In this document: positions 44,609-63,518 of the stretch, one piece after another
How positions within the stretch are numbered: the stretch's first letter is position 1
Layout: every line of letters starts with the position of its first letter
From: Microcystaceae cyanobacterium
GTDB lineage: Bacteria; Cyanobacteriota; Cyanobacteriia; Cyanobacteriales; Microcystaceae
Length of the DNA stretch: 63,518 bases
Reading direction: 5' to 3'
Assembly (NCBI GenBank): GCA_040398185.1
Contig: JBBAUO010000021.1
Coordinates: 1 to 63,518 of the forward strand
The notes under the pieces: model-generated
Told to the model about the DNA's origin: nothing
The model's input: the letters and a program-made list of their open reading frames with translations, nothing else
Database searches by the model: none
Program-made: the position numbers and the translations under genes

Positions 44609-44624
44609 TTATTATGCGATCGCT

Positions 44625-46298: not shown

Positions 46299-46300
46299 AG

Positions 46301-48577: not shown

Positions 48578-48782
48578 GGTTTAATGATGTTGGGGGAATA
48601 CGGGCTAAAATATTGGAGTGTGAGGTTTATATAGGTTATTGTTTAGCACTAAGTCCAGAGCTATCTGCAAAAAATGCTTGTATATCTTAAGGTTTTAAGA
48701 GAATATAAAAAGCTTGTCCTTGTTTTGGATCACAAGAGGACTAAAACTTTAGTCTAACAAATTGTCACGCGGTTAGTGTTCT

Positions 48783-49118
48783 ATGTTACCGTTATTTCAC
48801 CGAGAAGTCTATCATATTTGGTTAAATTTTTTGCAAGTTTTGCATAATCAAGCGGATCAAGCCAACTTTGAGCAAGTACAAAGGTATTTCTATGATGTGG
48901 TAATGGGGTTAGATGATGGGGAAATTGAGCCAATATACTTATCCCGTTGGCGCTCTCTGCAAACCGAACTACATCGCTTGGTACGTTTATTGGAGACAGA
49001 TTGGTTATTTTGTGGCTCGGCTCGTCAAAGTTCCACAAGGGAGAAAAGATTACAGGGATTTAGGGGGCGAATTGAGAAAATAATGGAGTATTGTCGGATT
49101 TTAGTCCAAGAAAGCTAA
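48783..49118 (+). CDS. small conserved cyanobacterial protein, possibly PatD-like
   Basis: 111 aa. Family assignment from memory of the PatD N-terminus only, so weak. Confidence 0.3.
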   Translation: MLPLFHREVYHIWLNFLQVLHNQADQANFEQVQRYFYDVVMGLDDGEIEPIYLSRWRSLQTELHRLVRLLETDWLFCGSARQSSTREKRLQGFRGRIEKIMEYCRILVQES

Positions 49119-49458
49119 TATTTTTTGTAAATCTGCCTGAAATAGACCAATATTACGGGAATTGACCAAGGGAACGTGGAGAAATAAACACCGAGACTGG
49201 GTTGTATGTTTTAAGACTTGGTAGTAGAGTCATGCTCTCCTATTCTTTGATAAACTTCCCGTGACATTTCACTTGTCATCTTAACTTGTGGCCAATGAGT
49301 CGCAGGTATAGGGCGGCGGGTGTTCTTTGCTTACCTAGCCCAAAAGTAGGAATCGAGCCAGATTTTTGAATCTCGCCGCAAGGTGTGCAGGAAATACAGG
49401 AGTAATCCTTTTGTGGGATAGTTTTATAATAACATCCCGCTCTTTTTCCAGGTAAAAA

Positions 49459-50691
49459 ATGAAAATTGCCATAATCAGTTCAGGATTCTTCCCCGTTATT
49501 GATGGTGTAACAGTGACTCTCTTTCATCGATTACGCTATCTTAGTCAATATGGTCATCAAGTTTTATTGTTTTGTCCAGATTATAGTTCGCTGGGTTCAA
49601 TTTATCCAGATTGGCAAAAATATACAGGGGAAATCTTTCCTAATGTTAGAACAATTAATCTTCCTAGTACTCCTTTTATGGGTCTAGAATTTGAACAAAA
49701 TGTTAGTCAAAAATCCTATTCAGTGGTCTTACAAGAATTACAATTGTTTCAACCAGATATTATCCATGTTGATGAACCTGAGAGACTATGGTTAGGCTTC
49801 TTAAAACGAGCGGGGCTTGATTTTTCCAGACAAGCTAAAATTCCTTGTGTTAGCTTTTTTCACACCAATTTTATTGAATATCTAGAAGATTATTTACCTC
49901 TTCCCCAATGGGGTTTAAAAATTCTTCAATTCTTAGCGAAATATCATCGTAATTGGATCTATAATGGCTACGACTTGACCTTAATTTCCAGTAAAACGAC
50001 GGCTCATAAAGTCACCAGTCTAGGGTTTAAAAATGTAGTAATCGCTGATTTATTAGGAGTTGATATTGAGCCGTATAAAAATTTAGTCAAAGAATCTAAC
50101 TACTTTGCGACAAAGTATAATATTAAAGACATTAATCAAAAACTAAAATTAGTCTTTTTAGGGAGATTAACCCCTGATAAAGGTTGGCATTTTACCTTAG
50201 ATGCTCTGACTCGGTTTTCTTCTCAGATTAATTTTGACAATCTTGCCTTTATTATTGCAGGAGAAGGAACAATGAAAGCAGAAATTCAACAAAAAATCCG
50301 TAATTTAACTTCTCATATTTATCTATTAGATCGCATTTTGCCAGAACACATTCCCCCATTACTGATCAATAGTGATATTTATGTCACCACCTCTGAAAAA
50401 GAGACAAAAGGGTTGACTATTTTAGAAGCCTTAGCCGCAGGACTTCCCATCCTTGCCCCCCATGCAGGAGGGATTATTGATACTATTCAAAATAACTATA
50501 ATGGTCTACTCTTTACTCCAAAAAATGCGGTAGAATTTATCCAAAAATTAAATTTGTTATTAGAGAATATGGCTTTAAGACAGAAGATAAGTGCCAATGC
50601 GAAAGTAAGTATTCATCGCGGATGGGAAGAAAGTGTTAATAATCTTATCAATATTTGGCAAGAAACAAGGCGTTCTGTAGACGTTGAATGA
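49459..50691 (+). CDS. glycosyltransferase family 4 (GT-B, group 1)
   Basis: N-terminus 'MKIAIISSGFFPVIDGVTV' and C-terminal 'TSEKETKGLTILEALAAGLPILAP' (E-x7-E region) typical of GT4. Confidence 0.8.
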   Translation: MKIAIISSGFFPVIDGVTVTLFHRLRYLSQYGHQVLLFCPDYSSLGSIYPDWQKYTGEIFPNVRTINLPSTPFMGLEFEQNVSQKSYSVVLQELQLFQPDIIHVDEPERLWLGFLKRAGLDFSRQAKIPCVSFFHTNFIEYLEDYLPLPQWGLKILQFLAKYHRNWIYNGYDLTLISSKTTAHKVTSLGFKNVVIADLLGVDIEPYKNLVKESNYFATKYNIKDINQKLKLVFLGRLTPDKGWHFTLDALTRFSSQINFDNLAFIIAGEGTMKAEIQQKIRNLTSHIYLLDRILPEHIPPLLINSDIYVTTSEKETKGLTILEALAAGLPILAPHAGGIIDTIQNNYNGLLFTPKNAVEFIQKLNLLLENMALRQKISANAKVSIHRGWEESVNNLINIWQETRRSVDVE

Positions 50692-50965
50692 CGAGGTAGG
50701 GCGTTAGTAGCATAAAGTCGCCAACCACAGTCTCTCTTAAAGGTAGCTATCTCTGACGGGCACTAATGATACGTTAAAATCAGTACCGTTTGATGAACAC
50801 GACGGCTAGGACTGTTAGTAGTGGGACGACCCCCGTTTTCATAAACTTTATCATAATGAATTTCCGACACAATTGAGGTAGGAATATAGCCATTAACTCA
50901 ATAACGCTTCAGAATTTCTGCTACTAAAGTATCTTTTCCTGGTCGGTCAGCCGAGAGATAGAGTA

Positions 50966-51799
50966 TCATTTATTTGTTTTGCGACTAGCTTTACTAATAA
51001 TACTATCAAAATATTTATTAATAGGTGTTCCTAATAAGCTATGAAATTTTGCCAAAAAAGCCATGGCAAAACCAGGTGTTATAATAAAAATTTTTTGCTC
51101 AATTCCTTTGAGAATTTCTATTGCAACCGATTCTGGACTCCATATTTTTACTTGACCAGTAATCGCTTTTGTTTCTGGTGGTTTTGTTATATTTTCTTGT
51201 GCTAGTTGCGGCGTATCCGTATCTGAAGGATAAACAATTGATAGATTAATTCCTAACATTTTTAACTCTGGACGTAAAGATTCCGCTAATCCTCTAATTG
51301 CAAACTTAGTAGGACTATAGGCAGTATAACCATAAATTCCCATTAATCCAGCCCCAGAAGAAATTAATACAATATGGCCTTTCCCTTGTTCTTGCATGGC
51401 AGGCAATACGGCTTTAATACAATATAGAGAGCCAAAATAATTAACCGCCATCGTTTGTTCAAAAACTTCGATCGGTAAGTTTTGAAAATAGTCTGGATAA
51501 ACAATTCCTGCGGAGTTAATTAATAAGTCTGGTGGGCTAATATTATTAATTACTTGTTCAAGAACTTGTTCAACTTGTTGACGATTACTCACATCAGCTG
51601 TATAAGTTAAAATTTGTTGACTTTTCCGAATTTTTATAGCGTCAAGTTCTGATTTGACCTGTTCTAACTTGAGAGAGTTACGGGCAATTAGAGAAAGATT
51701 ACTTCCAGATAAGGTCAATTCTTTCGCCAATGCTCTCCCGATGCCGCTTGACCCTCCTGTAACAATAGCATGGGAGTAGTGAGATTTTATTAAGATCAT
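50966..51799 (-). CDS. SDR-family oxidoreductase, 3-ketodihydrosphingosine reductase (KDSR)-like
   Basis: 'HAIVTGGSSGIGRALAKEL...LSLIARN' Rossmann motif, catalytic 'YSPTKFA' (YxxxK), hydrophobic C-terminal tail as in KDSR-type SDRs. Confidence 0.75.
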   Translation of the reverse strand: MILIKSHYSHAIVTGGSSGIGRALAKELTLSGSNLSLIARNSLKLEQVKSELDAIKIRKSQQILTYTADVSNRQQVEQVLEQVINNISPPDLLINSAGIVYPDYFQNLPIEVFEQTMAVNYFGSLYCIKAVLPAMQEQGKGHIVLISSGAGLMGIYGYTAYSPTKFAIRGLAESLRPELKMLGINLSIVYPSDTDTPQLAQENITKPPETKAITGQVKIWSPESVAIEILKGIEQKIFIITPGFAMAFLAKFHSLLGTPINKYFDSIISKASRKTNK

Positions 51800-51821
51800 T
51801 ATTAATTATGATAATAGGACA

Positions 51822-52484
51822 TTAACGCGTACCAGAAAGTCTAGCTGATTCTTGCGAAACAACACCTAATGTTTTCTCAACAGTATCTTCATAAACAGTG
51901 AAAAATAAGCCCCGATTAAAACTTGATTGGATATCAGGTTCTACACTAACTTGGTGAGTAATTAAATATTTATTAGAACCCATGGAGTCAATTTGCCAGG
52001 AACCTTGTAGACTTTTCACTTCCCCTTCAACAACTTTGAATTTAATTTGTTTAGGATAATCTTCGTTGACAACAATCTTCACTTTCGCCTTTCTAGAGAA
52101 GGTTAAAAGCTGAAAAACTTGCACTTGTTCAAACACTTTGTAATTCCCTCGATTTTCCAGCAGATTGCTTTCAACTACATTAGGCATATATTTCTCAAAA
52201 TTGTCGTAATCGGTTAAAACTTTCCAAATTACTGATAAATCACCTTTGGCAATCACATATCCTGTGTATTGTCCTTTACTTCCGTTAAGAATGACCTGTC
52301 CTTCTTTTAGGTTAAGCGTAGCCGCCGAAGAATTTTGTTTAACTCTATAGTCATGAACTTGTGCAAGGACAGGAGAATTGGCAAACGATGTGAGAGTGCC
52401 TTTTGAGACTGCTATTGTTGCTAGTGTGATGAATAACAGCCTTCTCATCCATTGTAGATGTTGTTTTTGCCAAGGTTGAATCAT
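51822..52484 (-). CDS. secreted SRPBCC (START/polyketide-cyclase-like) lipid-binding-fold protein
   Basis: Signal peptide 'LLFITLATIAVSKGTLTSFA' followed by ~180-aa SRPBCC-like beta-grip pattern. Confidence 0.5.
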   Translation of the reverse strand: MIQPWQKQHLQWMRRLLFITLATIAVSKGTLTSFANSPVLAQVHDYRVKQNSSAATLNLKEGQVILNGSKGQYTGYVIAKGDLSVIWKVLTDYDNFEKYMPNVVESNLLENRGNYKVFEQVQVFQLLTFSRKAKVKIVVNEDYPKQIKFKVVEGEVKSLQGSWQIDSMGSNKYLITHQVSVEPDIQSSFNRGLFFTVYEDTVEKTLGVVSQESARLSGTR

Positions 52485-52608
52485 GGATTTTGCTAAAATT
52501 TCTAAAAGCCTCTTTTATTTTAACTTAATTGCTAAAAAAGGCAACTTATCTCTTTCCTCTTACTTTAGATAGAGGCTAAGTGAAAGTCATTAATTTGCAG
52601 TTTTTTGA

Positions 52609-53496
52609 TTAAATCTGCCTTCTTAGGTCGTATTGATAATATTTCTGACAGAAGATAAGCCAGTTATGAATAACTTGGCGATACTCAGCTTTAGCTTTAT
52701 ATTGTATGTTGGCGTGGTTAGCTCCTTCGACTAAAATCAAAGATTTAGCCCCTGAAGCTTTTTTATATAAGTCTTGACTCATTGTATAAGGAATAGTTTT
52801 GTCGGCTGTTCCATGAATAATTAAAATTGGCATTTTTAGGGAGCTTATCTTAGATAAAGAATCAAATTTTTGCGTTAAAATTAGCGATTTTGGAAATAGT
52901 TGAATGGGCAAATAATAGTCGATTACTGCTGACATTGAAGTAAAAGAACTTTCTATTATTAAACCGCCCATCGTCGGATATCGAGTGGCTAAATTAATGG
53001 CTATTGCGCCTCCCAATGAATATCCATAAACAAATATATTCTGTGGCAAAATTTGTTTTTTTATGGTTAAATAAGACCAACTTGCTTCCGCATCTTCATA
53101 CAAGCTAATTTCATTAGGAAATGCACCTTGGCTTTTTCCATAACCTCGATAGTCAATCAGTAATATTGAAACGCCTAAGTCATGAAAAAACTCCACTTTA
53201 TCTAGTAAATCCCCTAAGTTACTACTATTACCATAAAAATATAATACTGTGGGACTCTTGAGGAGATTTGAATCAATCCACCAACCATACAATTGTCCTT
53301 TAGGCATAGTAATCCATATCTCCTCATAATTTAACTTTATATCTTTTGGGGTATTATTAATCGCAGAAGAAGGGAAAAATATAAGATGAGTTTGCCCAAT
53401 TCTTAAGCCAATTATTAAGCCCAAATAAAGGCATAAAAAAATACTACTTAGAAACAGGTATTTTTTAGATAGGGCTAAAATAGTTCGCTTGGCCAT
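52609..53496 (-). CDS. membrane-anchored alpha/beta hydrolase (ABHD/Bem46-like)
   Basis: N-terminal TM anchor, 'GYSLGGAIA' nucleophile elbow, 'IIHGTADKTIP' and 'GANHANI' acid/His blocks. Start placed at ATG 53496. Confidence 0.7.
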   Translation of the reverse strand: MAKRTILALSKKYLFLSSIFLCLYLGLIIGLRIGQTHLIFFPSSAINNTPKDIKLNYEEIWITMPKGQLYGWWIDSNLLKSPTVLYFYGNSSNLGDLLDKVEFFHDLGVSILLIDYRGYGKSQGAFPNEISLYEDAEASWSYLTIKKQILPQNIFVYGYSLGGAIAINLATRYPTMGGLIIESSFTSMSAVIDYYLPIQLFPKSLILTQKFDSLSKISSLKMPILIIHGTADKTIPYTMSQDLYKKASGAKSLILVEGANHANIQYKAKAEYRQVIHNWLIFCQKYYQYDLRRQI

Positions 53497-53897
53497 AGAG
53501 TTAAAAGGAAGATTATGCATGCTACAATGGGGTTCGAGTAGCAACGTATACTGTTGGATGACTTGAAAAAAGAAGCCTCGGTTCACAAAAAGCTCGTTAT
53601 CGAAGTTTAGCGACCGCTACTAATTTACTGTGTATGATAGCTTGGTTTAATGATACACGGGAGCAAGTCAGTTCTACAGAACAAATGAACTACAACAGAA
53701 AGCAGCAAAATTGAGTAAAATGAATATCGAAGTCAAGCCGAGTCCTAAAATGAACCCAGAGACCGAAAAAAAACTCCAAGAACATCTGCGAGAAATGTTA
53801 AGTAGAACAACTGCATCTAATTCTACCAAGAACTGGTAGTCTTTACGACAGCCTGCTAGTAAATTTGTTCTGTATTTTAATTAAACTAGAGACGCAA

Positions 53898-55502
53898 ATG
53901 TTACAAAAATATTATCGACAATGGGCATTAAGAAGTCTTGTCTTAGGAATTTTGGTCCCGATACTAACTACTTTACCGGCTTACGGATCTGAAAAAATAA
54001 TTCTAATTTATGGAGGTTTAAATTTCTCTATTCCTGTAAAATCTTTGGAACGATTTGTTCAAAATGGAACAGTTGACCATAGTTTAAAATTCTATTTTCG
54101 TTTTTTAAATGCTCAACAAAAAGCTAATTTACAAGAATTTTTACGCACCCGCTACGCAGTGAAAACCTTCGCATTACATCAGTTAGGACAAACCTATGCG
54201 GGAGAGCAATTATTAACTACCTTAGGTAAGGGAATTCAAATTCCAGGTGGTCGTAATGGTCATTATGCTATTCGAGGCTCGATGATACAAGCTTCAGCAA
54301 CACCTGAAGGTCTGAGTGTGATCAATGTTATCCGTCATTTTCCAACTGATATACAATTAAACATTACATATCTTCTAGCATCTACTAAGCACATTTTTAG
54401 TCTCGTTCAGGACACACAACATTTTATGAAATCGTTACCACAAACGGAGGTGATTAACTCAACGAAAACAATCTCTATTCTACCTAGTTTGGACTTAGAA
54501 AAGACAGATGTGTTTAAAATCAGTAAAAAAGTTTTTTCTTTACATGATTACAAACGCAATCGTCAGTTAAAAATAGCATTCTATTTTCCTAAAACTGAAC
54601 AAAATAAATTTCCTGTAATTGTTATTTCTAACGGTTTGGGAGCACATCTAGATAGATTTAGTAAGTTAGCAGAACATTTAGCTTCTCATGGATTTGCGGT
54701 AATAATTGCCGACCATCCCAATAGTAATGACGAGAGACAAAACGCTTTTTATGCAGGATTATACTCAGAACCTTTTGATGCTACTGAATTTGTTGATCGC
54801 CCTTTAGATGTTACATTTATTCTTGACCAATTTGAGAAATTAAATTCTACTCAGTTTGACCATAAACTCAATTTACAAGAAGTAGGAATTTTGGGTTATT
54901 CTTTTGGGGGAGCCACTGCTTTTGCGTTAGCAGGAGCAAAAATTAACTTTCAGCAACTAGAAAAAGATTGTAAATCTCCTAATGGATTTTATAATATATC
55001 TATCTTATATCAATGTCGGGCTTTAGAGCTTCCTCAAAAATCTTACGATTTAAAAGATCAGCGAATTAAAGCCATATTTGCATTTTTTCCTTTTAGTCGT
55101 AGTCTTTATGGACAATCAGAAATGAATCAGATTAAAATTCCTGTGTTTTGGCAAGCCACAGATGCGGATGTAATTACACCATTATTAACTGAACAAGTCC
55201 CTCCCTTTACTTGGTTACAATCTCGTGACAAATATCTGGCTATTGCTGAAAAACTTCCCCACACTCGTATCATTTTAAATGCCACCAGTAAACTAATTAA
55301 TCAACAAATTACGGAGGAGCAGATAATTCAAACAACTCACCATTATCTAAGCACTTTAAGTTTAGCTTTTTTCAAAACCTATATTGCCCATAATAATCTT
55401 TATTATTCCCATTTACAGCCCCCTTATATATTATCCATTAGTCAGGAACCTTTTAGGTTACATTTAACGCAAAAAGTTCAATTTTCCGTAAATAAAAAAT
55501 AG
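53898..55502 (+). CDS. secreted alpha/beta hydrolase with N-terminal DUF1400-type domain
   Basis: Signal peptide 'LVLGILVPILTTLPAYG'. N-terminal ~200 aa resembles cyanobacterial DUF1400. C-terminal hydrolase with 'GYSFGGATA' nucleophile elbow. Start moved to ATG 53898. Confidence 0.6.
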   Translation: MLQKYYRQWALRSLVLGILVPILTTLPAYGSEKIILIYGGLNFSIPVKSLERFVQNGTVDHSLKFYFRFLNAQQKANLQEFLRTRYAVKTFALHQLGQTYAGEQLLTTLGKGIQIPGGRNGHYAIRGSMIQASATPEGLSVINVIRHFPTDIQLNITYLLASTKHIFSLVQDTQHFMKSLPQTEVINSTKTISILPSLDLEKTDVFKISKKVFSLHDYKRNRQLKIAFYFPKTEQNKFPVIVISNGLGAHLDRFSKLAEHLASHGFAVIIADHPNSNDERQNAFYAGLYSEPFDATEFVDRPLDVTFILDQFEKLNSTQFDHKLNLQEVGILGYSFGGATAFALAGAKINFQQLEKDCKSPNGFYNISILYQCRALELPQKSYDLKDQRIKAIFAFFPFSRSLYGQSEMNQIKIPVFWQATDADVITPLLTEQVPPFTWLQSRDKYLAIAEKLPHTRIILNATSKLINQQITEEQIIQTTHHYLSTLSLAFFKTYIAHNNLYYSHLQPPYILSISQEPFRLHLTQKVQFSVNKK

Positions 55503-55518
55503 TATTGAGTTAGGAATA

Positions 55519-57132
55519 ATGAATAAGTTTTTATTTGCTTTTATGTCGAAAGTCTCTAAAAGATACTTGCTGATAACGATTATTATTCTAGTTTTAGGAC
55601 TCTATTTTAGAATCACAAATCTGAGTAATAAAATTTATTGGGTTGATGAAGTTGCAACTTCTTTGCGCGTGGCAGGGTTTACAAAACAAGAATTAATTCA
55701 GGATGTTTTAAATCTAGGCGTGATAGAGATTAAATCCTTGCAATATTATCAAAAAATTACGCTAAAAAAATCTTTTTATGATTTAGTAAAAGCTTTAATT
55801 AAAAGTCCAGAACATGCACCGCTTTATTTTATCGTTGCTAGAATATGGACTGAGTTTTTTGGCAGTTCAATTTTCTCAATTAGAAGTCTATCTGTGATAT
55901 TTAGTATCCTAAGTTTACCATCTATTTATTGGTTATGTAGACTATTATTTCAATCTTCAAAACCTGGATGGATTGCGGTTTTGCTTTTGGCAATTTCTCC
56001 TCTATACGTAGCCTATGCTCAAGAAGCTCGACCTTATAGTTTATGGCTCGAAATAATTCTTCTATCCCAGATTACTCTTTTGGTATGTTTACGTTCCAAT
56101 TCTTTACTAAATTGGTTTTACTACACTATTATTTTGATTCTTAGTCTTTATACTTCTTTACTATCAATTTTACTAATTATTGCCCAGAGCGCCTACGTAA
56201 TTATAATTAATAAACTTCGAGCTGAATCACAAGTTATTTTCCAATTAATCGCCGTCGGAATTGCCTTAATATTTTTTAGCCCCTGGTTAATCATCATGGC
56301 TCAAAATTGGCAACAATTTCAAGACAACACAACTTGGATGAAAGTCCACTTAAATCTAGGCGCTATGGCGGTAATTTGGTTTTATAGCATGGCTACGATT
56401 TTTATTGAAACACCAATTTATCTAAATTTTGATGCTATGATTTTGACTCGAATCATTATCGACATTAATTTATTTATTTTAGTAATTTTTTCTCTATGTT
56501 TTATTTATCGTAAAACTAATAAAAGTGTTTGGTTATTTGTTTTATTGCAGATACTGATTCCTTTAATAATCATGAGAGGATTAGACCTAACATTAGGAGG
56601 ACAGCGTTCAACAGCTATTAGATATATGATGCCCAGTTATTTATTGGTTCATGTGACAGTTGCTTACTTATTTTCAAGTAAAATTTTAACCGCTTCCAAG
56701 GGTTTTTTTCAAACCAAAAAACAATGGATAGTGCTACTTTTTCTGATTTTGTTTATTGAAGTATCTTCCTGCACTTTTATGTTGAATAAATCTCCCCAGT
56801 ATCAAAAAACTCGCAATCTCCATAATCCTGAGATCGCTCAAATTCTTAATCATAATCCTTTGGCAATTTTACTGACTGAGCCATCCAATATACTTGACGC
56901 TATTTCTATTAGTTATTTACTCAAACCATCTATTCAATTTCAGTTAATTTCTAATCCTTCTCTACTAACACTTTTACCTCTCAGTAGAACTCTTTATGTT
57001 TTAAATCCTTCCTTAGACTTAATCAATCAAATCCGACAGAAGCTAGGGGATTTTGAAATCGAACAAGTCTATCAACCTAAGTTATTAACAGAAGGGGAAA
57101 TTCATTTATCACTTTGGCAGTTAAAAACTTAG
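55519..57132 (+). CDS. glycosyltransferase family 39 (PMT_2/ArnT-like GT-C membrane glycosyltransferase)
   Basis: 'YWVDEVATSLRVAG', 'EHAPLYFIVARIW', 'RSLSVIFSILSLPSIYWLCR' match the ArnT/PMT N-terminal loop and helices. ~12 TM. Translationally adjacent to the upstream hydrolase. Confidence 0.75.
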   Translation: MNKFLFAFMSKVSKRYLLITIIILVLGLYFRITNLSNKIYWVDEVATSLRVAGFTKQELIQDVLNLGVIEIKSLQYYQKITLKKSFYDLVKALIKSPEHAPLYFIVARIWTEFFGSSIFSIRSLSVIFSILSLPSIYWLCRLLFQSSKPGWIAVLLLAISPLYVAYAQEARPYSLWLEIILLSQITLLVCLRSNSLLNWFYYTIILILSLYTSLLSILLIIAQSAYVIIINKLRAESQVIFQLIAVGIALIFFSPWLIIMAQNWQQFQDNTTWMKVHLNLGAMAVIWFYSMATIFIETPIYLNFDAMILTRIIIDINLFILVIFSLCFIYRKTNKSVWLFVLLQILIPLIIMRGLDLTLGGQRSTAIRYMMPSYLLVHVTVAYLFSSKILTASKGFFQTKKQWIVLLFLILFIEVSSCTFMLNKSPQYQKTRNLHNPEIAQILNHNPLAILLTEPSNILDAISISYLLKPSIQFQLISNPSLLTLLPLSRTLYVLNPSLDLINQIRQKLGDFEIEQVYQPKLLTEGEIHLSLWQLKT

Positions 57133-59481
57133 TCACTTGTACCAATAAGCATCACGCTGAAATGGATAGTTCGGTAGGATAATGGGAGAGAATAAGTTTT
57201 TTTCTTCAAAATTTGACCAATTAATTGAGCCACCTAGACTGTAAAATTTGGCTAAGTAGCCACACAAACAAGACCAAATATCTGGAAATTGAAAATCAAT
57301 AGAAATCATCAAATCATAGTCTTCTTGATTTAAAATTTCGAGAGCCTTCTCATTGGATACTTGAGAAGATATTGGATCTGGAAAAAACAGATGTCTATTT
57401 AGATAACTTAATAAAGGAACTTTACCAGGAAAATAAGTGACAGCATCCGATTTTTTTTGTCCAGCTAAGACCATTAAGCTATCTTTTAAACTGACAATTT
57501 CTGCAACAGTCATAGCCACCCAATGTCCAACACCATAACCGATAACGGCTGTGGGAAGAATGCCCCAAGACTCCAAAAGCTTGAATAGGGCATATTCTAA
57601 TATGAAGAGAATGAGCATTAGCTCAGAACTTGTCTGATTTTCTTGTTCAAAAAAGTTACCTAAATCAATCTTCAGGCAAAGTAGAATTTCTTGTTTACAA
57701 TCATCAATTGACTTTTGAAAAACGGATTGAGTTTGATATAAAAACAATGCCTTTTTCCAAGATTTAGAAACATCTTGACAAAATAGAAAAGGAATTTTTA
57801 AGGAATGATTTCTGCTAACTTGTCCAAAGAAGAGATCAAGGGTGAATTGTTCATTCAGAAAGTCTATCAGTTTTTGCTGCAGTGTCGCCAAAGAAAACGT
57901 GACAACCGCTAAACGATAATTAAAATCTGAGCGGCTAGTGTTTGCTGTTCCACAAACATTAGCCAAAGATAAATAGGGATGGGTGGTCAAAAAATCACAA
58001 TATTTCTCAACTAAGACTGTCCTGGCTGATTGACTTTTAGCAGAAAGGGTAAATAAGTAAGCAGGATATTTGACCATTTCCTGAGCCGATACAACGGGAG
58101 TTGAAGCAGGAAATTGAGAAACAATAACATGGGCATTTGTTCCACTAAAGCCAAAAGAACTTACTCCCGCCACTTTTGAATGATTATCTCTTGGCCAAGA
58201 CATATTTTTGGTGGGAATTACCAACGGCAGTTGTGACCAATTAATATTTGGATTAGGATTTTTAAAATGAATTTGAGGAGGAATAGCTTCATTTTGAAGA
58301 CATAAGATAACTTTGATTAAGCTAACAATGCCAGCGGCAGCTTCCAAATGGCCAATATTAGCTTTAACCGAGCCTACAATTAAAGATCCAGAACTTTTTT
58401 GGCTAAAAACTTGCCCCAGTGCTCCAATTTCGATGGAATCGCCCAGTATTGTTCCTGTTCCATGGGCTTCCACATAACTAACGTCATCTGCCTTTATATG
58501 AGCATTTTTAAGGGCTTGTTGAATAACAGCTTGTTGAGCAAGTCCATTAGGAGCCGTTAAGCCATTACTACGACCGTCTTGATTGATAGCCGACCCCCGC
58601 AGAACTGCTAAAATATTATCCTGAGCAGTGATAGCCTCTTGTAACCGTTTGAGAACTACGACACCACATCCCTCTGAGCGCACAAAGCCATTGGCAGAGG
58701 CGTCAAAGGTCTTACAATGACCATCAGGAGATAACATTCGTGCTTTTGAAAAACTAATACTAATTTCAGGGGAAATAATACGATTGACCCCTCCAACAAT
58801 TGCTAAATTACACTCTTGGTTACGGAGACTAGCCATTGCTAAATGAATTGCCACTAGAGAGGATGAGCAAGCTGTGTTCACTGAGAGGCTTGGACCATTT
58901 AGCCCTAAAAAATAGGATAAACGACCTGATGCAGTGCTGTGGGTATTACCTGTTATCAGATAAGCATCAATTTCATTAGGATCTCTTTTTAATAGTTGAT
59001 GCCAGTAATCATTACCACAAATTCCCACAAAAACACCTGTTGAACTGCCACTTAAATTATCGGGAGGAATTCCTGAATTTTCTAGTGCTTCCCAACATAC
59101 TTCTAAAAGGACTCTTTGCTGAGGATCTAAACTAATAGCTTCTCGCGGGGCAATATTAAAGAAATGAGCATCAAAGGTTTGAAGATGTGGAATAAATCCG
59201 CCATAAAACGTACATATTTTCCCTGTTTGATTTAGATCAAGATCGTAGTAAGATGCTAAGTTCCAATGTTCTGGAGGAATTTCGCTGATTCCGTCTTTAC
59301 CATCTCGTAAAAACTGCCAGAAATCATCAGGATTATTAATGCCTCCAGGCAGACGACAACCCATTCCAATTACCGCTATCGGCTCACTTTTAGCTTGCTC
59401 TAAATCATTCAATTTATCTTGCAATTGTTTGATCGCAACTAAAGCTTGTTTTGTCGTAGATAACTCTTGGCTCGATGACAT
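57133..59481 (-). CDS. type I polyketide synthase fragment: ketosynthase (active) + KS-AT linker + truncated inactive acyltransferase; no ACP
   Basis: KS Cys 'NTACSSSLVAIHLA', His 'EAHGTGT' and 'NIGHLEAAAG' all present. AT GHSxGE site replaced by 'GYGVGH'. Gene ends with post-AT motif 'LPNYPFQRDAYWYK'. Stop codon abuts the convergent GT39 stop (TAGTCA). Confidence 0.8.
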   Translation of the reverse strand: MSSSQELSTTKQALVAIKQLQDKLNDLEQAKSEPIAVIGMGCRLPGGINNPDDFWQFLRDGKDGISEIPPEHWNLASYYDLDLNQTGKICTFYGGFIPHLQTFDAHFFNIAPREAISLDPQQRVLLEVCWEALENSGIPPDNLSGSSTGVFVGICGNDYWHQLLKRDPNEIDAYLITGNTHSTASGRLSYFLGLNGPSLSVNTACSSSLVAIHLAMASLRNQECNLAIVGGVNRIISPEISISFSKARMLSPDGHCKTFDASANGFVRSEGCGVVVLKRLQEAITAQDNILAVLRGSAINQDGRSNGLTAPNGLAQQAVIQQALKNAHIKADDVSYVEAHGTGTILGDSIEIGALGQVFSQKSSGSLIVGSVKANIGHLEAAAGIVSLIKVILCLQNEAIPPQIHFKNPNPNINWSQLPLVIPTKNMSWPRDNHSKVAGVSSFGFSGTNAHVIVSQFPASTPVVSAQEMVKYPAYLFTLSAKSQSARTVLVEKYCDFLTTHPYLSLANVCGTANTSRSDFNYRLAVVTFSLATLQQKLIDFLNEQFTLDLFFGQVSRNHSLKIPFLFCQDVSKSWKKALFLYQTQSVFQKSIDDCKQEILLCLKIDLGNFFEQENQTSSELMLILFILEYALFKLLESWGILPTAVIGYGVGHWVAMTVAEIVSLKDSLMVLAGQKKSDAVTYFPGKVPLLSYLNRHLFFPDPISSQVSNEKALEILNQEDYDLMISIDFQFPDIWSCLCGYLAKFYSLGGSINWSNFEEKNLFSPIILPNYPFQRDAYWYK

Positions 59482-59502
59482 AGTAGTAACCAGTAACTAA
59501 TA

Positions 59503-60270
59503 TTAATTGATTTGATCCTTCCAAGCTTCTAAATTTTGCTTACCTTTTTGGACATAGGGAGAAATAGAGACGAGCTTAATAATAAATTGATTAACTAGAG
59601 AAAGAGGAAACTTGAGAGGGCGTAGAAAATCTACAAAGAGGACGACGCGAATATCATTAGTTTGGTTCCAAGCTTCGTGGGGAAAAGTGTCATCAAAAAT
59701 TAAGCTTTTTCCTTCTTGCCAATGCCGAATTTCATTACCTACCCGAATTTGACAATCCGTTGAGGAATGGGGAACTTTTAAGGCAAGATGATAACGAATA
59801 ACCCCTTTGTAAGGGCCACAATGCTCAGGGATGTGTTTATGGGGTAGTAAAATTGAAAAAAATGCAGTTTTCATACCAGGGATTTGTTCAACTAATTGGG
59901 TAGTTTGAGGACATTTCTGACAATTTTGCTCTGCCTTTAGTCCATAGGCATAGAAAAAGAAAGTCTTCCAACGATGATCTTGAGTAATATCGAGCTGATC
60001 AGGGGAAATATCTTGAAAATTTGGAATATTATTTAAACTTTTTAAAAGTTCATCTAGTTCTTGTCGAATAATTAACCAGTTTTCTTCTAAATTTATGACC
60101 CAGTTAAATTGTCGGCAATCAAAAAAGACTTGATTTTCTACTAAGGAATGCCTATCTAATAAGCCTTCTAGTTTTCGGAAATACTTCTCACCTTGAGTAA
60201 CCACAAACTGATGATGTTTATCACCCATCTTTGAGATAATTTCCTTAATGTTTTTAGCAATAATGTTCAT
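59503..60270 (-). CDS. aspartyl/asparaginyl beta-hydroxylase family (AspH/LpxO-like) Fe(II)/2OG oxygenase
   Basis: 'LLPHKHIPEHCGPYKGVIRYHLALKVP' and 'FDDTFPHEAWN' match the pfam Asp_Arg_Hydrox 2-His-1-carboxylate region. Confidence 0.75.
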   Translation of the reverse strand: MNIIAKNIKEIISKMGDKHHQFVVTQGEKYFRKLEGLLDRHSLVENQVFFDCRQFNWVINLEENWLIIRQELDELLKSLNNIPNFQDISPDQLDITQDHRWKTFFFYAYGLKAEQNCQKCPQTTQLVEQIPGMKTAFFSILLPHKHIPEHCGPYKGVIRYHLALKVPHSSTDCQIRVGNEIRHWQEGKSLIFDDTFPHEAWNQTNDIRVVLFVDFLRPLKFPLSLVNQFIIKLVSISPYVQKGKQNLEAWKDQIN

Positions 60271-60466
60271 AAGTTATTAGAAGCCGATTTCCGTCTCGTA
60301 ATTACTAGCCACTAATCTAGTATATCCAATAATATAGCTCTTGTATTTAGATTGTCAACTTACTGTAAGGATAAGGCCCTTTGACTTCACTCAGTACAAG
60401 CTGCTCAGTGACCACAGGTAACAAATATCGTTCGGAAATTATTGAGGATTGCTATAGCAACATTTA

Positions 60467-62797
60467 TTAGCGTAATTTCACCTTAATTATATGGGGATAA
60501 CCATCAGTCTTAGGATCAAGGGGTGAACCGCTTACCCAAACTTGGTTATCTTGAATCTGAAGAATTTGACGACTTCCACTGCCAGAAAAGTCAAGATTCA
60601 TCTTGGGATACAGATTCGATAAAATGGTTTTATCATCAATCATAACACCTGTTTGATCTGGATGTTGAGAATTTGAAAAAATTCCATTTTTCCAATCTAA
60701 ATTATTAATATTAGAGGGAAGAATTTGACGAGTTAAAGCAAAGTCATTTAAGGAAATTAATAGCTGCGCCTGACAAGATTTAACAGTCAATTTTGCTCGT
60801 TCCTCAGGATAAGCTTTCATCTCTAAAATTGACTCTGTTCCCTTTTGATGTTCAAGAGAAATATGCCAATTGGAGTGACTAGAAGGTGCGCCATAACTGT
60901 AGTTGCCTTTTTTTCCAATAGATTTTTGGTGATCTGTTTTTCGTTCAATAATATTCACTAATCCTCGATTTCCTATTAGAGGAATAGACGTAGGTTTAAC
61001 GGTTAAATAATAATTGAGAGTTATATCAGCATAGTAGATATTATGTTCTTCTTTATTCACCGATTGAGGTGTATTAATTATTAATTTTACTACATCATTT
61101 TTTTCTTGAATAATTTGGCAAATAATGGGTAAAGAATTTAGATGTTTCGGTTGCTCTAGGCGTTGCCAAATTAAGTTATAGAATGTCGCTTCGACCAATT
61201 GGTAGTCCTTAATAAATTCTCTATAAAACCACCAATTTGTTCGTCTTACCCAAGTTTCCCATAAATAAGCATCTTCTCGCAATGTAGTAATATATTCAGG
61301 TTTAAATTGTTCCCAGTTACTTAAATATTGATATCTAGATTTATCTCCTAAAGCATGAATGATATAATCAGTTCCAGTGGGATTGAGCGCTCCGATAATC
61401 ACATCCATTCCCGTTGAGTAAGTAGATAATATTTTTTGTAAGGAAGGTTTATTTTGTAGTTCTTGTTTTAACGTTTTAGCTATTTCAATACTTGATTTCC
61501 ATTTAGGGGATAACCATCCGCCTAACTCTGCTACTTTAATAAATCCTTTTTCTGGTGAAGGAATAGGATAATAAATATAATAGTTAATCACATGAATTAA
61601 AGGAGCAATGACAAAGATTAACATCATAAATAGAGATGCCTGCCGAAAAATAAAGTGAATATTAATTCGTGCTAAAAATCGCTGAATTTTTCCATGGAAT
61701 AATAAATAAATAGACAAAGGAATGGTGAAAAGGGAAACAATACCACTTAACAGAAAATAACGAACACTCATAGTCCCTCCCACGGACGAGAGAATCCCTG
61801 CTGTGTAAACGGTTAAGCTAAGATAGATTAAAAGTAGGTGTTGAATGGTATAAGTTTTAAAATATCCTCGTAAGATAATGATGATAATACTCACCAAATA
61901 AATGCAAGAAAATCCCAAAAATAAAGGATGTTTTAAGAAGTCTTGAGGTGCAAGTATCTTATTATAATTTTCAAACCATACATAATACCAAAATTGATCT
62001 CCAACTACTCCACTAAAATTACTTTTTAACCACTCAGGTAGATGTCCTTGGGTCAACAGCATTCCCATTATATAAAAAGTTGTTGCAGCAGATAATATCG
62101 TTAAGAAAATTTTCCTTAATCTTCTTTTTCTATCTTGGGTAATCGCATAAATAATTGTCAAAAAAATTAAATTAAAAGTCGAGGGAATGCCATAATCATT
62201 CGACCAAAGGGGTTGCATTCCCATTAAGCCACCTATTCCTAAATAAAGTAACCATGAATGAGAGAATGATAGCAAGAGAACTAATAAAATTAAGCTTGTC
62301 AAAAAAGGCAAGGAACTCCGAACATTCAAATTACTTGTTCCAGGGCCGACAATTTCATTAATTAAATGAGAATTCTCGAAAAGAAAAGAAACAATAGTCA
62401 TCACAAAAGAAGCCCAAATTAAAGAAGAATATTTTGTCAGTCCCGAGCAAAAAAATAAAGTCCATAAAACTAAAAAATGCAAGCTTAAAGCGATTGAATA
62501 AATACTGAATTGAGAAGATGCAAAATCCCTCCCTGTCAGAAACGTAAAAAAAGCATTGAGATAGGTCGGACCCAAACCTAAATAAGGATTAAATTCTCTT
62601 CCAGGAATCTGCCCTAATAAAATTCTACGCACTGGGTTAAAGGTTTGAAATGCGCCATTGAGTGGGATATAGTCTAAATTTAATCGATGATAACTTGCTA
62701 TACAATAAATAGACAAAATAACAGATAAAAGAGCGACAAATGGTAAATATTTTTGCCATTCAATACCGAGAAAAATTGTTTTGCGTTCTATTCTCAT
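60467..62797 (-). CDS. large polytopic membrane protein with C-terminal extracytoplasmic domain (possible GT-C-like)
   Basis: 776 aa. ~12-14 TM helices in the first ~420 aa, then ~350-aa hydrophilic domain. First gene of the minus-strand operon with the AspH-like and KS genes. Confidence 0.5.
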   Translation of the reverse strand: MRIERKTIFLGIEWQKYLPFVALLSVILSIYCIASYHRLNLDYIPLNGAFQTFNPVRRILLGQIPGREFNPYLGLGPTYLNAFFTFLTGRDFASSQFSIYSIALSLHFLVLWTLFFCSGLTKYSSLIWASFVMTIVSFLFENSHLINEIVGPGTSNLNVRSSLPFLTSLILLVLLLSFSHSWLLYLGIGGLMGMQPLWSNDYGIPSTFNLIFLTIIYAITQDRKRRLRKIFLTILSAATTFYIMGMLLTQGHLPEWLKSNFSGVVGDQFWYYVWFENYNKILAPQDFLKHPLFLGFSCIYLVSIIIIILRGYFKTYTIQHLLLIYLSLTVYTAGILSSVGGTMSVRYFLLSGIVSLFTIPLSIYLLFHGKIQRFLARINIHFIFRQASLFMMLIFVIAPLIHVINYYIYYPIPSPEKGFIKVAELGGWLSPKWKSSIEIAKTLKQELQNKPSLQKILSTYSTGMDVIIGALNPTGTDYIIHALGDKSRYQYLSNWEQFKPEYITTLREDAYLWETWVRRTNWWFYREFIKDYQLVEATFYNLIWQRLEQPKHLNSLPIICQIIQEKNDVVKLIINTPQSVNKEEHNIYYADITLNYYLTVKPTSIPLIGNRGLVNIIERKTDHQKSIGKKGNYSYGAPSSHSNWHISLEHQKGTESILEMKAYPEERAKLTVKSCQAQLLISLNDFALTRQILPSNINNLDWKNGIFSNSQHPDQTGVMIDDKTILSNLYPKMNLDFSGSGSRQILQIQDNQVWVSGSPLDPKTDGYPHIIKVKLR

Positions 62798-63518
62798 AAA
62801 TCTTTAAGGATTGATAGGATTAAACTGACTCAAAGTAAGCTATCTCGTCCGAAAGGGACGAGGCTTTGAATAGCCTGAATCTATTGGATAAGCCAATAAA
62901 CTCGAAGCTTTAGGTTGGCTTACATTCAACCCCACTAAAGCAAAATTATTTCAGAAGTGTTTTGTCTCCATCCTCAGTCCATCCAGGCACTTTATTACTA
63001 CAATTTCTGTTGCTCTATACTGACTTGAAGCTTGACGACTAGGGTTAGGACTTTGTCCTATGGCTCTAAAAACTTGCTACTATGATTATACTTTAGAAGG
63101 GGATAGAATTAAAGCTTTTCTGAGATTTTAAACTGAGCATCGTCGAAGAGCGGGGGTTCAGACCCAATCTTTTCTTTTCTGAGCAAGTTTTGCTTTCATC
63201 TTATTGCCAGAGATCATGGGCAAATTCTTTTAGATAAAAGGGTTTGGAGAGTAATAAGTGGGTACACAAAATAAATTACCCAAAATTAGTAGAAGCGGGT
63301 TTAGCCAGAAGCCTTGTCAAATAAACGATATGATTCGCTCAAAACCCACCCACTTCCGTGTAGTTAATTGTGTTTCTTACTTTTCCCGCTAAGTTCAAAA
63401 TGCAGTCTGTAAGGGCATTATAGCCTTGGGGTAGTTTTAGTGATATAGTACAGAAAAGTTTTTGGGTGGAGGTCAAAAAATGTTGGAATGGTGGGTGAAA
63501 AATTTTGCCAGTTGCGCC

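Follow-up and report, generated by a model that had tools for sequence, protein, structure and literature searches.

An AT-rich, HIP1-free genomic island of a freshwater cyanobacterium probably carries part of a PKS-AOS sphingoid-type glycolipid cluster

The locus raises two questions: where did the AT-rich end of this DNA come from, and what do its genes make? The window, by which we mean the whole 63,518-nt stretch analysed, contains 24 copies of the HIP1 octamer GCGATCGC, against 0.26 expected from shuffles, and all 24 lie no later than 47,059-47,066. With 0.49 copies per kb in the host part, 6.9 would be expected in the final 14.2 kb, where there are none, so the probability of finding zero is about 1e-3. 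The HIP1-free tail is 16.5 kb long, compared with 7.1 kb for the widest upstream gap, and from host part to island the counts of CGATCG fall from 41 to 1 and those of GCGATC from 36 to 0. GC drops from 0.437 (positions 1-49,270) to 0.348 in the remainder of the window, and GC3 is 0.22-0.30 in the nine island genes versus 0.31-0.49 in 43 upstream ORFs. In GC-corrected tetranucleotide usage, island chunks correlate with host chunks at r = 0.68-0.77, and host chunks with one another at 0.89-0.96. The island thus differs from the host in GC, HIP1 and tetranucleotide profiles, which bears out the HIP1-free, AT-rich tail reported in a preliminary description of this DNA.

We found that six sister-lineage contigs (L040-L045) share 98.2-98.8% nucleotide identity with the window over 36.2-49.2 kb and diverge exactly past 49,231; at the equivalent positions beyond, they hold unrelated, HIP1-bearing genes. 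Since the match stops there, the island starts at 49,232, and it occupies at least 14.29 kb (49,232-63,518), its right end lying beyond the window. The island is therefore a true indel, absent from close relatives. Sister-contig divergence and composition together place the left break at 49,232-49,270 rather than at the earlier estimate of about 50.7 kb, and the gene at 49,459-50,691 (GC3 0.255), omitted from the original list of eight, belongs to the island. In a deletion haplotype, contig L017, which is 99.99% identical to window positions 41,226-49,270, the first 39 bp of the island (49,232-49,270) are retained and are followed by a truncated response regulator and then a histidine kinase. 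Two further contigs, L018 and L019, break off at 49,259/60. Sister lineages lacking the island inhabit the same lakes as the L017 deletion haplotype. The final host gene ahead of the island, a patD homologue (48,783-49,118, plus strand; NCBIfam het_cyst_PatD, 82.9 bits vs a cut-off of 50), is found in relatives both with and without the island and serves as a flank marker.

The composition break, together with unrelated HIP1-bearing genes at the same site in close relatives, upholds the proposal of horizontal acquisition: the island is a horizontally acquired, strain-variable element whose host is a freshwater cyanobacterium rich in HIP1 and whose insertion site lies just 3' of patD. We considered whether low GC and HIP1 absence might instead stem from the residues that membrane proteins favor, with no transfer at all. 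Of the nine proteins, three are polytopic in the membrane and have a high content of Ile, Leu, Phe, Lys and Asn, and GC is as low as 0.38 in some host genes. However, the drop in GC3 extends to every one of the nine genes, those for soluble proteins too, tetranucleotide usage differs after GC correction, and a homologous cluster (L020) has 13 HIP1 sites. The absence of the region from relatives that are 98.5% identical contradicts this explanation, and we regard it as extremely improbable.

The first island gene (49,459-50,691, plus strand) encodes a cytoplasmic GT4-family (Glycos_transf_1) glycosyltransferase of 410 aa (Pfam PF00534, E = 1.8e-29). Its best NCBIfam models, both under cut-off, are the lipid glycosyltransferases GlcNAc-PG synthase and MGlcDAG synthase, and we predict a lipid acceptor. 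Orthologues in L020, L024 and L025 (75, 57 and 56% identity) adjoin a PKS with an alpha-oxoamine synthase domain (PKS-AOS). The second gene (50,966-51,799, minus strand) encodes a classical SDR of 277 aa (Pfam adh_short, E = 1.5e-49) with TGxxxGxG and YxxxK motifs. It scores below the curated NCBIfam cut-off and matches the 3-ketodihydrosphingosine reductase TSC10 (PDB 8jat) over its full length (residues 9-263, E = 3.7e-25), in agreement with its earlier description as KDSR-like. We predict that it is a 3-keto long-chain-base reductase; orthologues adjoin an AOS in L027 (53%), L021/L038 (65%) and Moorena L046 (65%).

The third gene (51,822-52,484, minus strand) encodes a secreted SRPBCC/START-like protein of 220 aa (Pfam Polyketide_cyc, E = 3.1e-13). 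A signal-peptide-like N-terminus is kept in five of five cluster homologues and the gene adjoins KS-AT°, described below, in L021, L022, L023 and L024; the protein is a predicted periplasmic lipid carrier. It is followed by a membrane-anchored alpha/beta hydrolase (52,609-53,586, minus strand; Pfam Hydrolase_4 and Abhydrolase_1), whose nucleophile elbow (GYSLG) and TM helix at the N-terminus are both kept in homologues. Its start probably gives a protein of 295 aa (52,609-53,496), the form called by gene callers on metagenome contigs. A second, secreted hydrolase (53,865-55,502, plus strand) combines DUF1400 (E = 1.2e-35) with a lipase-like domain (PAF-AH_p_II, E = 1.1e-10). It has a GYSFG motif, and its conserved signal peptide ends in LPAYG; its start is probably 53,898, giving 534 aa. 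The island has these two hydrolases and not three, the third previously counted (45,369-46,298) being a host gene.

A 537-aa GT-C glycosyltransferase of the PMT_2 (GT39/GT83) type with about 11 TM helices is encoded at 55,519-57,132 on the plus strand. It matches Pfam PMT_2 with 52.4 bits (cut-off 26.1), carries a DE motif at residues 43-44 and gave no match in NCBIfam or PDB sequence searches. The gene converges on the next with abutting stops (TAG|TCA), which are real and lie at 57,130-57,135. This neighbor (57,133-59,481, minus strand), formerly described as a stand-alone ketosynthase, encodes a 782-aa protein, KS-AT°, whose Pfam domains comprise a KS, a linker and a degenerate AT with no ACP. 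Its layout is an N-terminal docking helix, an active ketosynthase (C205/H340/H378 invariant in alignment A1), a KS-AT linker, a truncated inactive acyltransferase and a post-AT linker. The AT of each family member is missing about 80 aa, HAFHS among them, and has G(Y/H/C)GxG in place of GHSxG. The C-terminal docking tail of the L021 FAAL-PKS can pair with KS-AT° and not with the N-terminus of the PKS-AOS.

An Asp_Arg_Hydrox dioxygenase of 255 aa, OlsC/LpxO-like, is encoded at 59,503-60,270 on the minus strand (Pfam, E = 1.3e-57). Its best curated model is NCBIfam OlsC (265.6 bits against a cut-off of 450, E = 3.6e-79), and LpxO scores 132.4 bits (cut-off 500). Since OlsC is the best model, the substrate is probably a lipid acyl chain, and we predict a lipid acyl 2-hydroxylase; orthologues lie inside AOS clusters in L020 (81%), L021 (69%) and Moorena L046 (52%). 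The last complete gene (60,467-62,797, minus strand) encodes M776, a 776-aa protein with about 10 TM helices and a 365-aa beta-rich periplasmic domain. M776 had no Pfam, NCBIfam or PDB sequence match; it is a GT-C glycosyltransferase, a fold shown in the present analysis.

Orthologues of all nine genes co-occur in clusters of 30-36 kb in other cyanobacteria, with 52-81% identity in the two fullest, as expected if the genes form a coherent set. One JGI contig carries AP_endonuc_2, PMT_2, FAAL, GT4, AspH, KS-AT°, PMT_2, DUF1400, ABH, SRPBCC, PKS-AOS, FAAL-PKS, DAO, GT2, GT2, M776 and SDR; seven window orthologues are 63-81% identical by tblastn and M776 is 66% identical. GCA_041743025.1 carries the same gene set, SDR included. 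Gloeocapsa sp. PCC 73106 and Chlorogloea sp. CCALA 695 are examples of strains that have the cluster in full. The cluster core is a FAAL-loaded reducing PKS with a terminal AOS domain, and the PKS-AOS of the relatives reads DH-ER-KR-ACP-Aminotran_1_2. The best PDB matches of the AOS are SPTLC2 (4e-70) and Sphingobacterium SPT (2e-67); AONS/KBL-annotated chains score nearly equally (5e-67), so that the AOS appears serine-palmitoyltransferase-like, with serine assigned at the level of best hits. In relatives the M776 gene shares an operon with two GT2 genes and with genes for an FAD oxidoreductase and a short SDR, an arrangement resembling a polyprenyl-P-sugar synthase plus an epimerase pair. 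The Moorena bouillonii locus contains FAAL, AspH, ACP-AOS, the SDR and a GT2/GT21-like glycosyltransferase. A cerebroside has been reported from the genus Moorena, and sphingolipids from two cyanobacteria only; they were not found in Nostoc punctiforme (PMC8895605). The cluster family is widespread among cyanobacteria yet unstudied, and a product has so far been observed for no member.

These clusters bear on a possible role of the island in decorating lipid A, O-antigen or other glycans, with only a loose link to the PKS-AOS. ArnT, LpxO and PagL are envelope and lipid A modification enzymes, and the GT-Cs, the LpxO-like hydroxylase and the hydrolases would fit such a role. However, Pfam and NCBIfam detect no arnA-F, lpx or O-antigen genes in the island, the OlsC score is double that of LpxO (both under cut-off), and at least five genomes have the same genes within or next to PKS-AOS clusters. 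Lipid A remodelling leaves no role for KS-AT°, the KDSR-like SDR or the GT4, and we judge this alternative improbable. The island dioxygenase has the same fold as OlsC, an ornithine-lipid acyl 2-hydroxylase, and LpxO, a lipid A 2-hydroxylase, but falls below both equivalog cut-offs and has no ols or lpx genes nearby. ArnT/PMT-type GT-Cs and mycobacterial Emb/Aft/PimE, the latter using polyprenyl-phospho-sugar donors, share with the island enzymes a polytopic GT-C fold and a periplasmic domain; in contrast, the predicted acceptor is a lipid rather than lipid A, protein or arabinan, and the FAD enzyme of the relatives' operon is DAO-type and not DprE1-type.

We favor, with moderate confidence, the reading that the island is the half of a PKS-AOS sphingoid-type glycolipid cluster that serves tailoring, glycosylation and export, present in the window as an incomplete, rearranged copy. 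The product of the family is most likely an envelope glycolipid built on a PKS-derived long-chain amino alcohol of the sphingoid type. We infer the following order for complete clusters. A fatty acid would be activated by FAAL and elongated by reducing type I PKS modules, with KS-AT° docking on the FAAL-PKS ACP as a putative additional condensing enzyme. The terminal AOS would join acyl-ACP and an amino acid into a 2-amino-3-keto long-chain base, whose 3-keto group the SDR would reduce, and the OlsC/LpxO-like dioxygenase may then 2-hydroxylate an acyl chain. The GT4 would add the first sugar in the cytoplasm; after flipping, PMT_2 and M776 would attach sugars drawn from polyprenyl-phosphate donors that the DAO, GT2, GT2 and SDR genes supply. 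In the periplasm the lipid may be handled by the SRPBCC carrier and the two exported or anchored hydrolases.

The nearest characterised system is SgaABC of Pseudomonas fluorescens MYb115 (PKS, AOS and KDSR-like SDR), which makes C24-C28 sphinganines (PMC12134224, 2025); cyanobacteria go unmentioned in the accessible text and supplements of that report. In both, a reducing type I PKS feeds a long acyl chain to an SPT-like AOS and the cluster encodes a eukaryote-like KDSR-type SDR. A PKS fused to an SPT-like AOS in the relatives follows the logic of this pathway, so the earlier statement that the genes fit no described pathway, sphingolipid included, is unsupported. The cyanobacterial family differs in fusing the AOS to the PKS or having it as ACP-AOS, in FAAL loading, and in having at least two PKS proteins plus KS-AT° with its dead AT. 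It also adds the GT4, OlsC-like hydroxylase, two GT-Cs, polyprenyl-sugar operon, secreted SRPBCC and hydrolases. Of the three core SgaABC functions, the SDR alone is present in the window. The canonical bacterial route of Caulobacter and Sphingomonas (Spt, bCerS, CerR, Sgt1/2) likewise runs from AOS condensation through a 3-keto base to reduction, N-acylation and GT4-type glycosylation, yielding an outer-membrane glycolipid. In contrast, the cyanobacterial family showed no stand-alone Spt, GNAT-type bCerS or CerR homologue; its acyl donor is PKS-bound and it has no obvious ceramide synthase candidate.

The clusters might instead make a different polyketide lipid: a non-sphingoid amino-polyketide, or one that is heterocyst-glycolipid-like or mycolate-like. 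1-deoxy bases would result if the AOS used alanine or glycine; alternatively, KS-AT° could perform a Pks13-type head-to-head condensation with SDR reduction as by CmrA. Serine as the AOS substrate is read from best matches; among the best matches of the KS is Pks13 (564 bits), and a mycolate reductase model hits the SDR (1.6e-30). However, the Pks13 and CmrA similarities are generic to KS and SDR and below cut-offs, the top solved relatives of the AOS are SPTs, the SDR aligns with TSC10 along its length, and the Moorena locus has its GT2/GT21-like enzyme. The heterocyst glycolipid (hgl) island of Nostocales also pairs a PKS-made long-chain lipid with GT4-type glycosylation and deposition outside the cytoplasmic membrane, and the host carries patD; but no HglE/D/C/B-type genes were seen, an AOS replaces the terminal reductase, and the cluster occurs in many non-heterocystous genera (among them Okeania, Gloeocapsa, Hydrococcus and Leptolyngbya). 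We therefore consider such a product rather doubtful.

At the right end, a non-coding stretch (62,836-63,479) replaces the operon 5' of the M776 gene. Several assemblies break at 62,835, and contigs L002, L004 and L005 stop 38-42 bp past the M776 gene start. The window closes with the first 13 codons (MLEWWVKNFASCA...) of an IS4/Tn5-type transposase (63,480-63,518, plus strand), cut off by the contig end; L001 runs 261 bp further and bears a Tnp_DNA_bind fragment. No FAAL, PKS, AOS, DAO or GT2 gene was found in the whole 63,518-nt window, an absence of backbone enzymes that the preliminary description overlooked. The copy is therefore incomplete as seen, and the island can work only if the backbone genes lie elsewhere in the genome.

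This arrangement would also suit a decaying remnant, in which a rearrangement driven by the IS deleted the genes for PKS-AOS, FAAL and the sugar donors, leaving nine genes with no substrate or function. The IS occupies the exact place where DAO-GT2-GT2 precede the M776 gene in relatives, the KS-AT° docking helix has no partner in the window, and the deletion haplotype and island-free lineages of the same lakes indicate that the island is dispensable. However, none of the nine ORFs is broken or shortened against homologues, SNPs are few (pN/pS about 0.22 from 18 SNPs, too small a number for a firm selection test), and the island is present in at least six independent metagenome assemblies. The contig ends inside the IS, so the missing genes may sit just past it. 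We regard decay as possible though unlikely, and retain the incomplete glycolipid cluster as our reading. In Hydrococcus (L022), KS-AT° and SRPBCC occur with one hydrolase only, apart from the remaining genes, which indicates that the gene set is modular and not obligatorily linked.

We found that L040-L045, six island-free loci of a sister lineage that belong to the same 90% RelA cluster and lie on contigs of up to 197 kb, match the window at 98.2-98.8% identity from 36.2 kb to exactly base 49,231 and then diverge. The island therefore starts at 49,232, directly 3' of a patD homologue (48,783-49,118, + strand), the last host gene before it. Beyond 49,231 the sister contigs carry a Peptidase_C15-like gene, GATase, GGACT, DUF2301, a C39-ABC exporter and a P450, and this replacement stretch has a GC content of 0.42 and seven HIP1 sites. 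The same island was found on contigs with an identical RelA/SpoT protein from several lake metagenomes (L014-L016; L001-L005). The preliminary description had argued for horizontal acquisition from the break in composition, and we observe an indel: the locus exists without the island in close relatives and the composition of the island deviates from that of the host. We are close to certain that the stretch from 49,232 to the contig end is a horizontally acquired genomic island. The PatD homologue scores above its NCBIfam cut-off (82.9 bits against 50); PatD controls heterocyst frequency, and its presence beside the island hints that the host is filamentous and possibly heterocystous.

The HIP1 octamer GCGATCGC occurs 24 times in the window, against 0.26 expected from shuffles, and all 24 copies lie between 1,224 and 47,066. 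None is seen in the island, where 6.9 would be expected at host density (P(0) ~1e-3). In 2-kb windows GC is 0.40-0.50 up to ~49 kb and 0.32-0.39 thereafter (overall 0.437 for the host part and 0.348 for the island). GC3 is 0.22-0.30 in the nine island ORFs (49,459-62,797) against 0.31-0.49 in 43 upstream ORFs, so amino-acid composition does not account for the GC shift. After correction for base composition, tetranucleotide usage gave r of 0.89-0.96 between host chunks and 0.68-0.77 between host and island. These profiles bear out the earlier impression of an AT-rich, HIP1-free region; its left boundary had been placed wrongly, at ~50.7 kb, since the GT4 gene at 49,459-50,691 shares the composition of the island and is part of it. 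The homologous cluster in the related locus L020 contains 13 HIP1 sites whereas the island has none, which points to a recent transfer from a donor with few HIP1 sites and low GC. The best matches of the island are all cyanobacterial.

A further contig, L017, is 99.99% identical to window positions 41,226-49,270; beyond this it enters a response-regulator gene that is cut off at ~residue 50, and a histidine kinase with a HIP1 site comes next. Since L017 retains the first 39 bases of the island (49,232-49,270), its most fitting interpretation is a derivative, by deletion, of the haplotype with the island. Two more contigs end at 49,259/60. The lake populations hold three haplotypes at this locus: the island, the deletion derivative (L017 1-690) and the sister-lineage arrangement of L040-L045. 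The neighbourhood of patD resembles a plasticity hotspot, and the island belongs to the flexible genome of the lake population. Speculatively, cells with and without the island may differ in their surface, which would matter for grazers and phages. An 88-bp insertion polymorphism lies between the GT4 and SDR genes (window 50703-50706; L014 7784-7871); it is present in L002, L014 and L016, absent from the window and L015, flanked by TAAC, and resembles a small MITE.

The right end of the island lies beyond the window. Positions 62,798-63,479 are non-coding, several assemblies break at 62,835, and the last 39 bases of the window (from 63,480) begin an IS4/Tn5-type transposase that runs on in L001. 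At the island borders we found no tRNA, tmRNA, integrase or Rfam family, no flanking repeats and no meaningful direct or inverted repeats, and the 720 bp at the right end have no second copy within the window.

The island genes were annotated by Pfam, NCBIfam, hydropathy and motifs. The GT4 glycosyltransferase (+ strand) has lipid glycosyltransferases as its top curated models, below cut-off. The classical SDR that follows (50,966-51,799, - strand) aligns over its full length to the yeast-type 3-ketodihydrosphingosine reductase TSC10 (8jat; E = 3.7e-25, residues 9-263 against 9-264), and its orthologues adjoin an alpha-oxoamine synthase (AOS) in three genomes. By sequence it is KDSR-like, as in PKS-derived sphingolipid (Sga-like) clusters. 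Next come an SRPBCC/START-like protein (51,822-52,484, - strand) with a signal peptide that is kept in all homologues, and an alpha/beta hydrolase (52,609-53,586, - strand) that has a GYSLG motif and is anchored in the membrane at its N-terminus. A second hydrolase, lipase-like and joined to a DUF1400 domain (53,865-55,502, + strand), has a signal peptide and a GYSFG motif; the island holds these two alpha/beta hydrolases rather than the three first counted. For DUF1400 a literature search gave no description, which is weakly informative since few subscription journals were covered.

The PMT_2 GT-C protein (55,519-57,132, + strand) has ~11 TM helices, and its loop 1 carries a DE motif. Its gene and that of the 782-aa KS protein (KS-AT°; 57,133-59,481, - strand) have abutting stop codons, TAG|TCA, as had been noted for the GT39 (PMT_2) and KS genes and as can be seen in the sequence. 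PDB sequence searches with the PMT_2 and GT4 proteins gave no useful match. The Asp_Arg_Hydrox dioxygenase (59,503-60,270, - strand) matched the NCBIfam model OlsC (ornithine-lipid acyl 2-hydroxylase) best, at 265.6 bits against a cut-off of 450, and then LpxO, at 132.4 against 500. These scores are below both equivalog cut-offs and point only to fold and superfamily membership. The last gene (60,467-62,797, - strand) encodes a 776-aa membrane protein that falls in no family.

The preliminary description had called the gene set coherent, and comparative synteny in other cyanobacteria agrees. The closest homologues of KS-AT° (P0002, 71%) and of the 776-aa protein (P0122, 66%) are both encoded on a single JGI contig of 64 kb. 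The gene order on this contig is AP_endonuc_2, PMT_2, FAAL, GT4, Asp_Arg_Hydrox dioxygenase, KS-AT°, PMT_2, DUF1400 hydrolase, hydrolase, SRPBCC, a PKS (2,564 aa), a FAAL-ACP-KS-AT...PKS (2,773 aa), a DAO-type FAD oxidoreductase, GT2, GT2, the 776-aa GT-C and a short SDR. Seven window proteins share 63-81% identity with their equivalents on this contig (tblastn). A second genome, GCA_041743025.1, has the same gene content, with the KDSR-like SDR (65% identity) included. Parts of the set recur as KS-AT°, SRPBCC, PKS and PMT_2 in L023; as PMT_2, DUF1400, PKS, PMT_2, GT4, SRPBCC and KS in L024; as the 776-aa GT-C, DAO, GT2, GT2, PKS and GT4 in L025; as a PKS followed directly by the SDR in L027; and as PKS, DAO, GT2, GT2 and GT-C in Chlorogloea (L011).

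The PKS adjoining these genes has the C-terminal domain order DH-ER-KR-ACP-Aminotran_1_2 and thus terminates with an AOS domain, as does the PKS of L038. We found the AOS in the orthologous clusters L020, L023, L024, L025, L027, L038 and L046. Its best solved relatives are human SPTLC2 (4e-70) and Sphingobacterium serine palmitoyltransferase (SPT; 2e-67), and chains annotated as AONS/KBL are close behind (~5e-67). Members of the same AOS family occur in many cyanobacteria as ACP-AOS or stand-alone AOS. In Moorena bouillonii the AOS is flanked by two FAALs, orthologues of the window hydroxylase (52%) and SDR (65%), and a GT2/GT21-like glycosyltransferase. The island genes are very probably members of this PKS + SPT-like lipid cluster family. 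Two sequences carry a Legionellales label: L009 (JACCVJ010000406.1, a 'Tatlockia sp.' MAG) has the gene order of Chlorogloea sp. CCALA 695 L011 from GT2, GT2, GT-C and HATPase onwards, and the AOS protein P0185 is also labelled Tatlockia. These are probably mis-binned cyanobacterial DNA rather than a transfer to Legionellales.

The KS-AT° family consists of cyanobacterial stand-alone proteins of 733-828 aa. In our alignment the KS triad (C205, H340, H378) is invariant. However, every stand-alone member aligned (11/11) has lost ~80 residues of the AT part, the small subdomain with HAFHS, and in the same 11 proteins the catalytic Ser of GHSxG is Gly (GYGVGH in the window protein), whereas the normal KS-AT-ACP synthases in the alignment retain both. 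The window protein begins with a coiled-coil docking helix and ends directly after the post-AT linker (LPNYPFQRDAYWYK), with no ACP. With a KS triad but neither a functional AT nor an ACP, KS-AT° does not look like an active modular PKS module.

In the related locus L021 the FAAL-PKS (1649-9859, 2736 aa) ends in a typical C-terminal docking tail and the PKS with the terminal AOS (PKS-AOS) begins directly with its KS, which makes KS-AT° the most plausible docking partner of the FAAL-PKS. The AT of this FAAL-PKS also looks degenerate: its Pfam match covers positions 2-121 of 319 and we found no GHSxG. The only full AT seen is that of the L023 PKS-AOS (positions 2-317 of 319), and an AT of this type may serve the other modules in trans if the pattern holds within one cluster. 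We infer that KS-AT° could be an extra condensing enzyme that acts on the FAAL-PKS ACP and lengthens the chain; the alternative is a role in acyl transfer instead of condensation. In Hydrococcus sp. C42_A2020_068 (L022, 8923-13146) a hydrolase, KS-AT° and SRPBCC stand together with no other cluster gene within 10 kb. The gene set is therefore modular, and KS-AT° and SRPBCC may be a functional pair of their own.

For the 776-aa protein, AlphaFold2 with 46 homologues gave a model (pLDDT 90.8, pTM 0.90) in which ~ten TM helices precede a beta-rich domain. The predicted structure is a GT-C glycosyltransferase fold, with an N-terminal polytopic module and a periplasmic domain. A candidate for the conserved acidic residue that GT-C enzymes have in their first periplasmic loop is column 68 of the alignment, where at least 90% of the 46 homologues have Asp and the window protein has Glu. 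At first we viewed this gene as unrelated to the other island genes, as its homologues in genome scans sat with DAO and GT2 genes. This view was overturned when the same contigs were found to carry PKS-AOS and KS-AT° a few kb away. In the relatives it comes fourth in an operon, DAO-GT2-GT2-GT-C, whereas in the window the region upstream of it is non-coding and leads into the IS. The 776-aa GT-C proteins and the KS-AT° proteins with their systematically deleted AT define two unannotated protein families.

The window lacks the AOS, FAAL, PKS-AOS, DAO, GT2, second PMT_2 and short SDR. When the FAAL, PKS-AOS, DAO, GT2 and SDR proteins of L020 and L037 were searched against it by tblastn, only KS cross-matches were obtained. 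Of reducing type I PKS the window has only the ACP-less KS-AT°, with a docking helix and no partner, whereas the relatives have full PKSs. A scan of metagenomes for the AOS domain gave no contig from the island-carrying samples. A 71%-identical AOS fragment (P0277/L039) was considered as the missing AOS and rejected, as it comes from a different JGI sample, contains HIP1 and could not be tied to this genome. Since the backbone genes were found neither in the window nor in the same metagenomes, there are two readings: the genome completes the window copy with genes past the IS or at another site, or the copy is an orphaned half-cluster. All nine island ORFs are full length, and 18 SNPs between population variants give a pN/pS of ~0.22, which is weak evidence for constraint. 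We consider it improbable that the window copy is functional on its own.

In Pseudomonas fluorescens MYb115 the PKS SgaA, the SPT-like AOS SgaB and the KDSR-like SDR SgaC produce C24-C28 sphinganines (PMC12134224); cyanobacteria go unmentioned in the text of that report and in the supplements examined. Sga and the cyanobacterial family have the PKS, AOS and KDSR logic in common. The cyanobacterial family differs in the fusion of the AOS to the PKS, in FAAL loading, in the presence of KS-AT° and in a large extracytoplasmic arm made up of two GT-C, a polyprenyl-sugar-type operon, a secreted START-like protein and exported hydrolases. The preliminary description had seen no described pathway in the island. 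This does not stand because the set belongs to the PKS + SPT-like family; among characterised systems, the Pseudomonas Sga system of 2025 stands nearest to that family. In the literature searched we found no description of a cyanobacterial PKS-AOS or sphingolipid cluster, which is weak evidence as subscription journals were poorly covered.

Two other systems can be set aside. For the Arn (lipid A Ara4N) system we found only a generic PMT_2 domain, with no NCBIfam ArnT match and no arn genes in the island; with no arn or lpx genes and scores below cut-off, this is not an Arn/LpxO lipid A system. Nor is it an hgl island, because no HglE/HglD/HglC/HglB-type synthase genes occur in the window or the related clusters examined and the cluster is present in non-heterocystous genera.

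We think it fairly probable that the cluster family makes a long-chain amino-alcohol. That its product is specifically a serine-derived sphingoid glycolipid is plausible, a little short of probable. Our wider proposal is tentative and on balance unlikely: that many cyanobacteria hold an undescribed FAAL-primed PKS-SPT-like pathway to a sphingolipid-based envelope glycolipid, whose tailoring and export half moves between strains. In such a pathway a FAAL-primed PKS fused to an SPT-like domain, with a dedicated ACP-less KS-AT° docked on the PKS, would make very-long-chain sphingoid bases. These would be hydroxylated and then glycosylated in the cytoplasm, after which two GT-C enzymes would extend the glycolipid in the periplasm and the secreted START-like protein would shuttle the lipid. 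If true, oxygenic phototrophs would have a sphingolipid-based envelope glycolipid, and the window would hold the tailoring and export half of the pathway, moving horizontally as a unit between strains.

Only two sphingolipids have been reported from cyanobacteria, both in old chemical work: a Moorea producens cerebroside and an acetylsphingomyelin of Scytonema. The one genetic study dealt with Nostoc punctiforme and had a negative outcome (PMC8895605). A 571-aa second AOS of Moorea was a candidate left untested in that study (PMC8895605); it matches the ACP-AOS family found here. An easily recognised, conserved cluster is present in the cultured strains Gloeocapsa PCC 73106, Chlorogloea CCALA 695, Hydrococcus and Moorena. 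It combines an SPT-like enzyme with a PKS, a KDSR-like reductase, a lipid hydroxylase and unusually much periplasmic glycosylation machinery, thus the question of cyanobacterial sphingolipids is directly testable.

Some observations concern the host region. A stretch of ~2 kb (window 28200-30320) holds only small ORFs of 76-116 aa, for example 29,350-29,580, 29,629-29,943 and 29,944-30,294, which look like toxin-antitoxin pairs; it has no Rfam match. An IS605 OrfB/TnpB-type gene (458 aa, 32657-34033, - strand) lies within otherwise housekeeping genes. The UPF0182 gene (41,279-44,110, 943 aa) is represented in L015 (14419-17308) by two ORFs of 568 and 408 aa, possibly through a frameshift or an assembly error.
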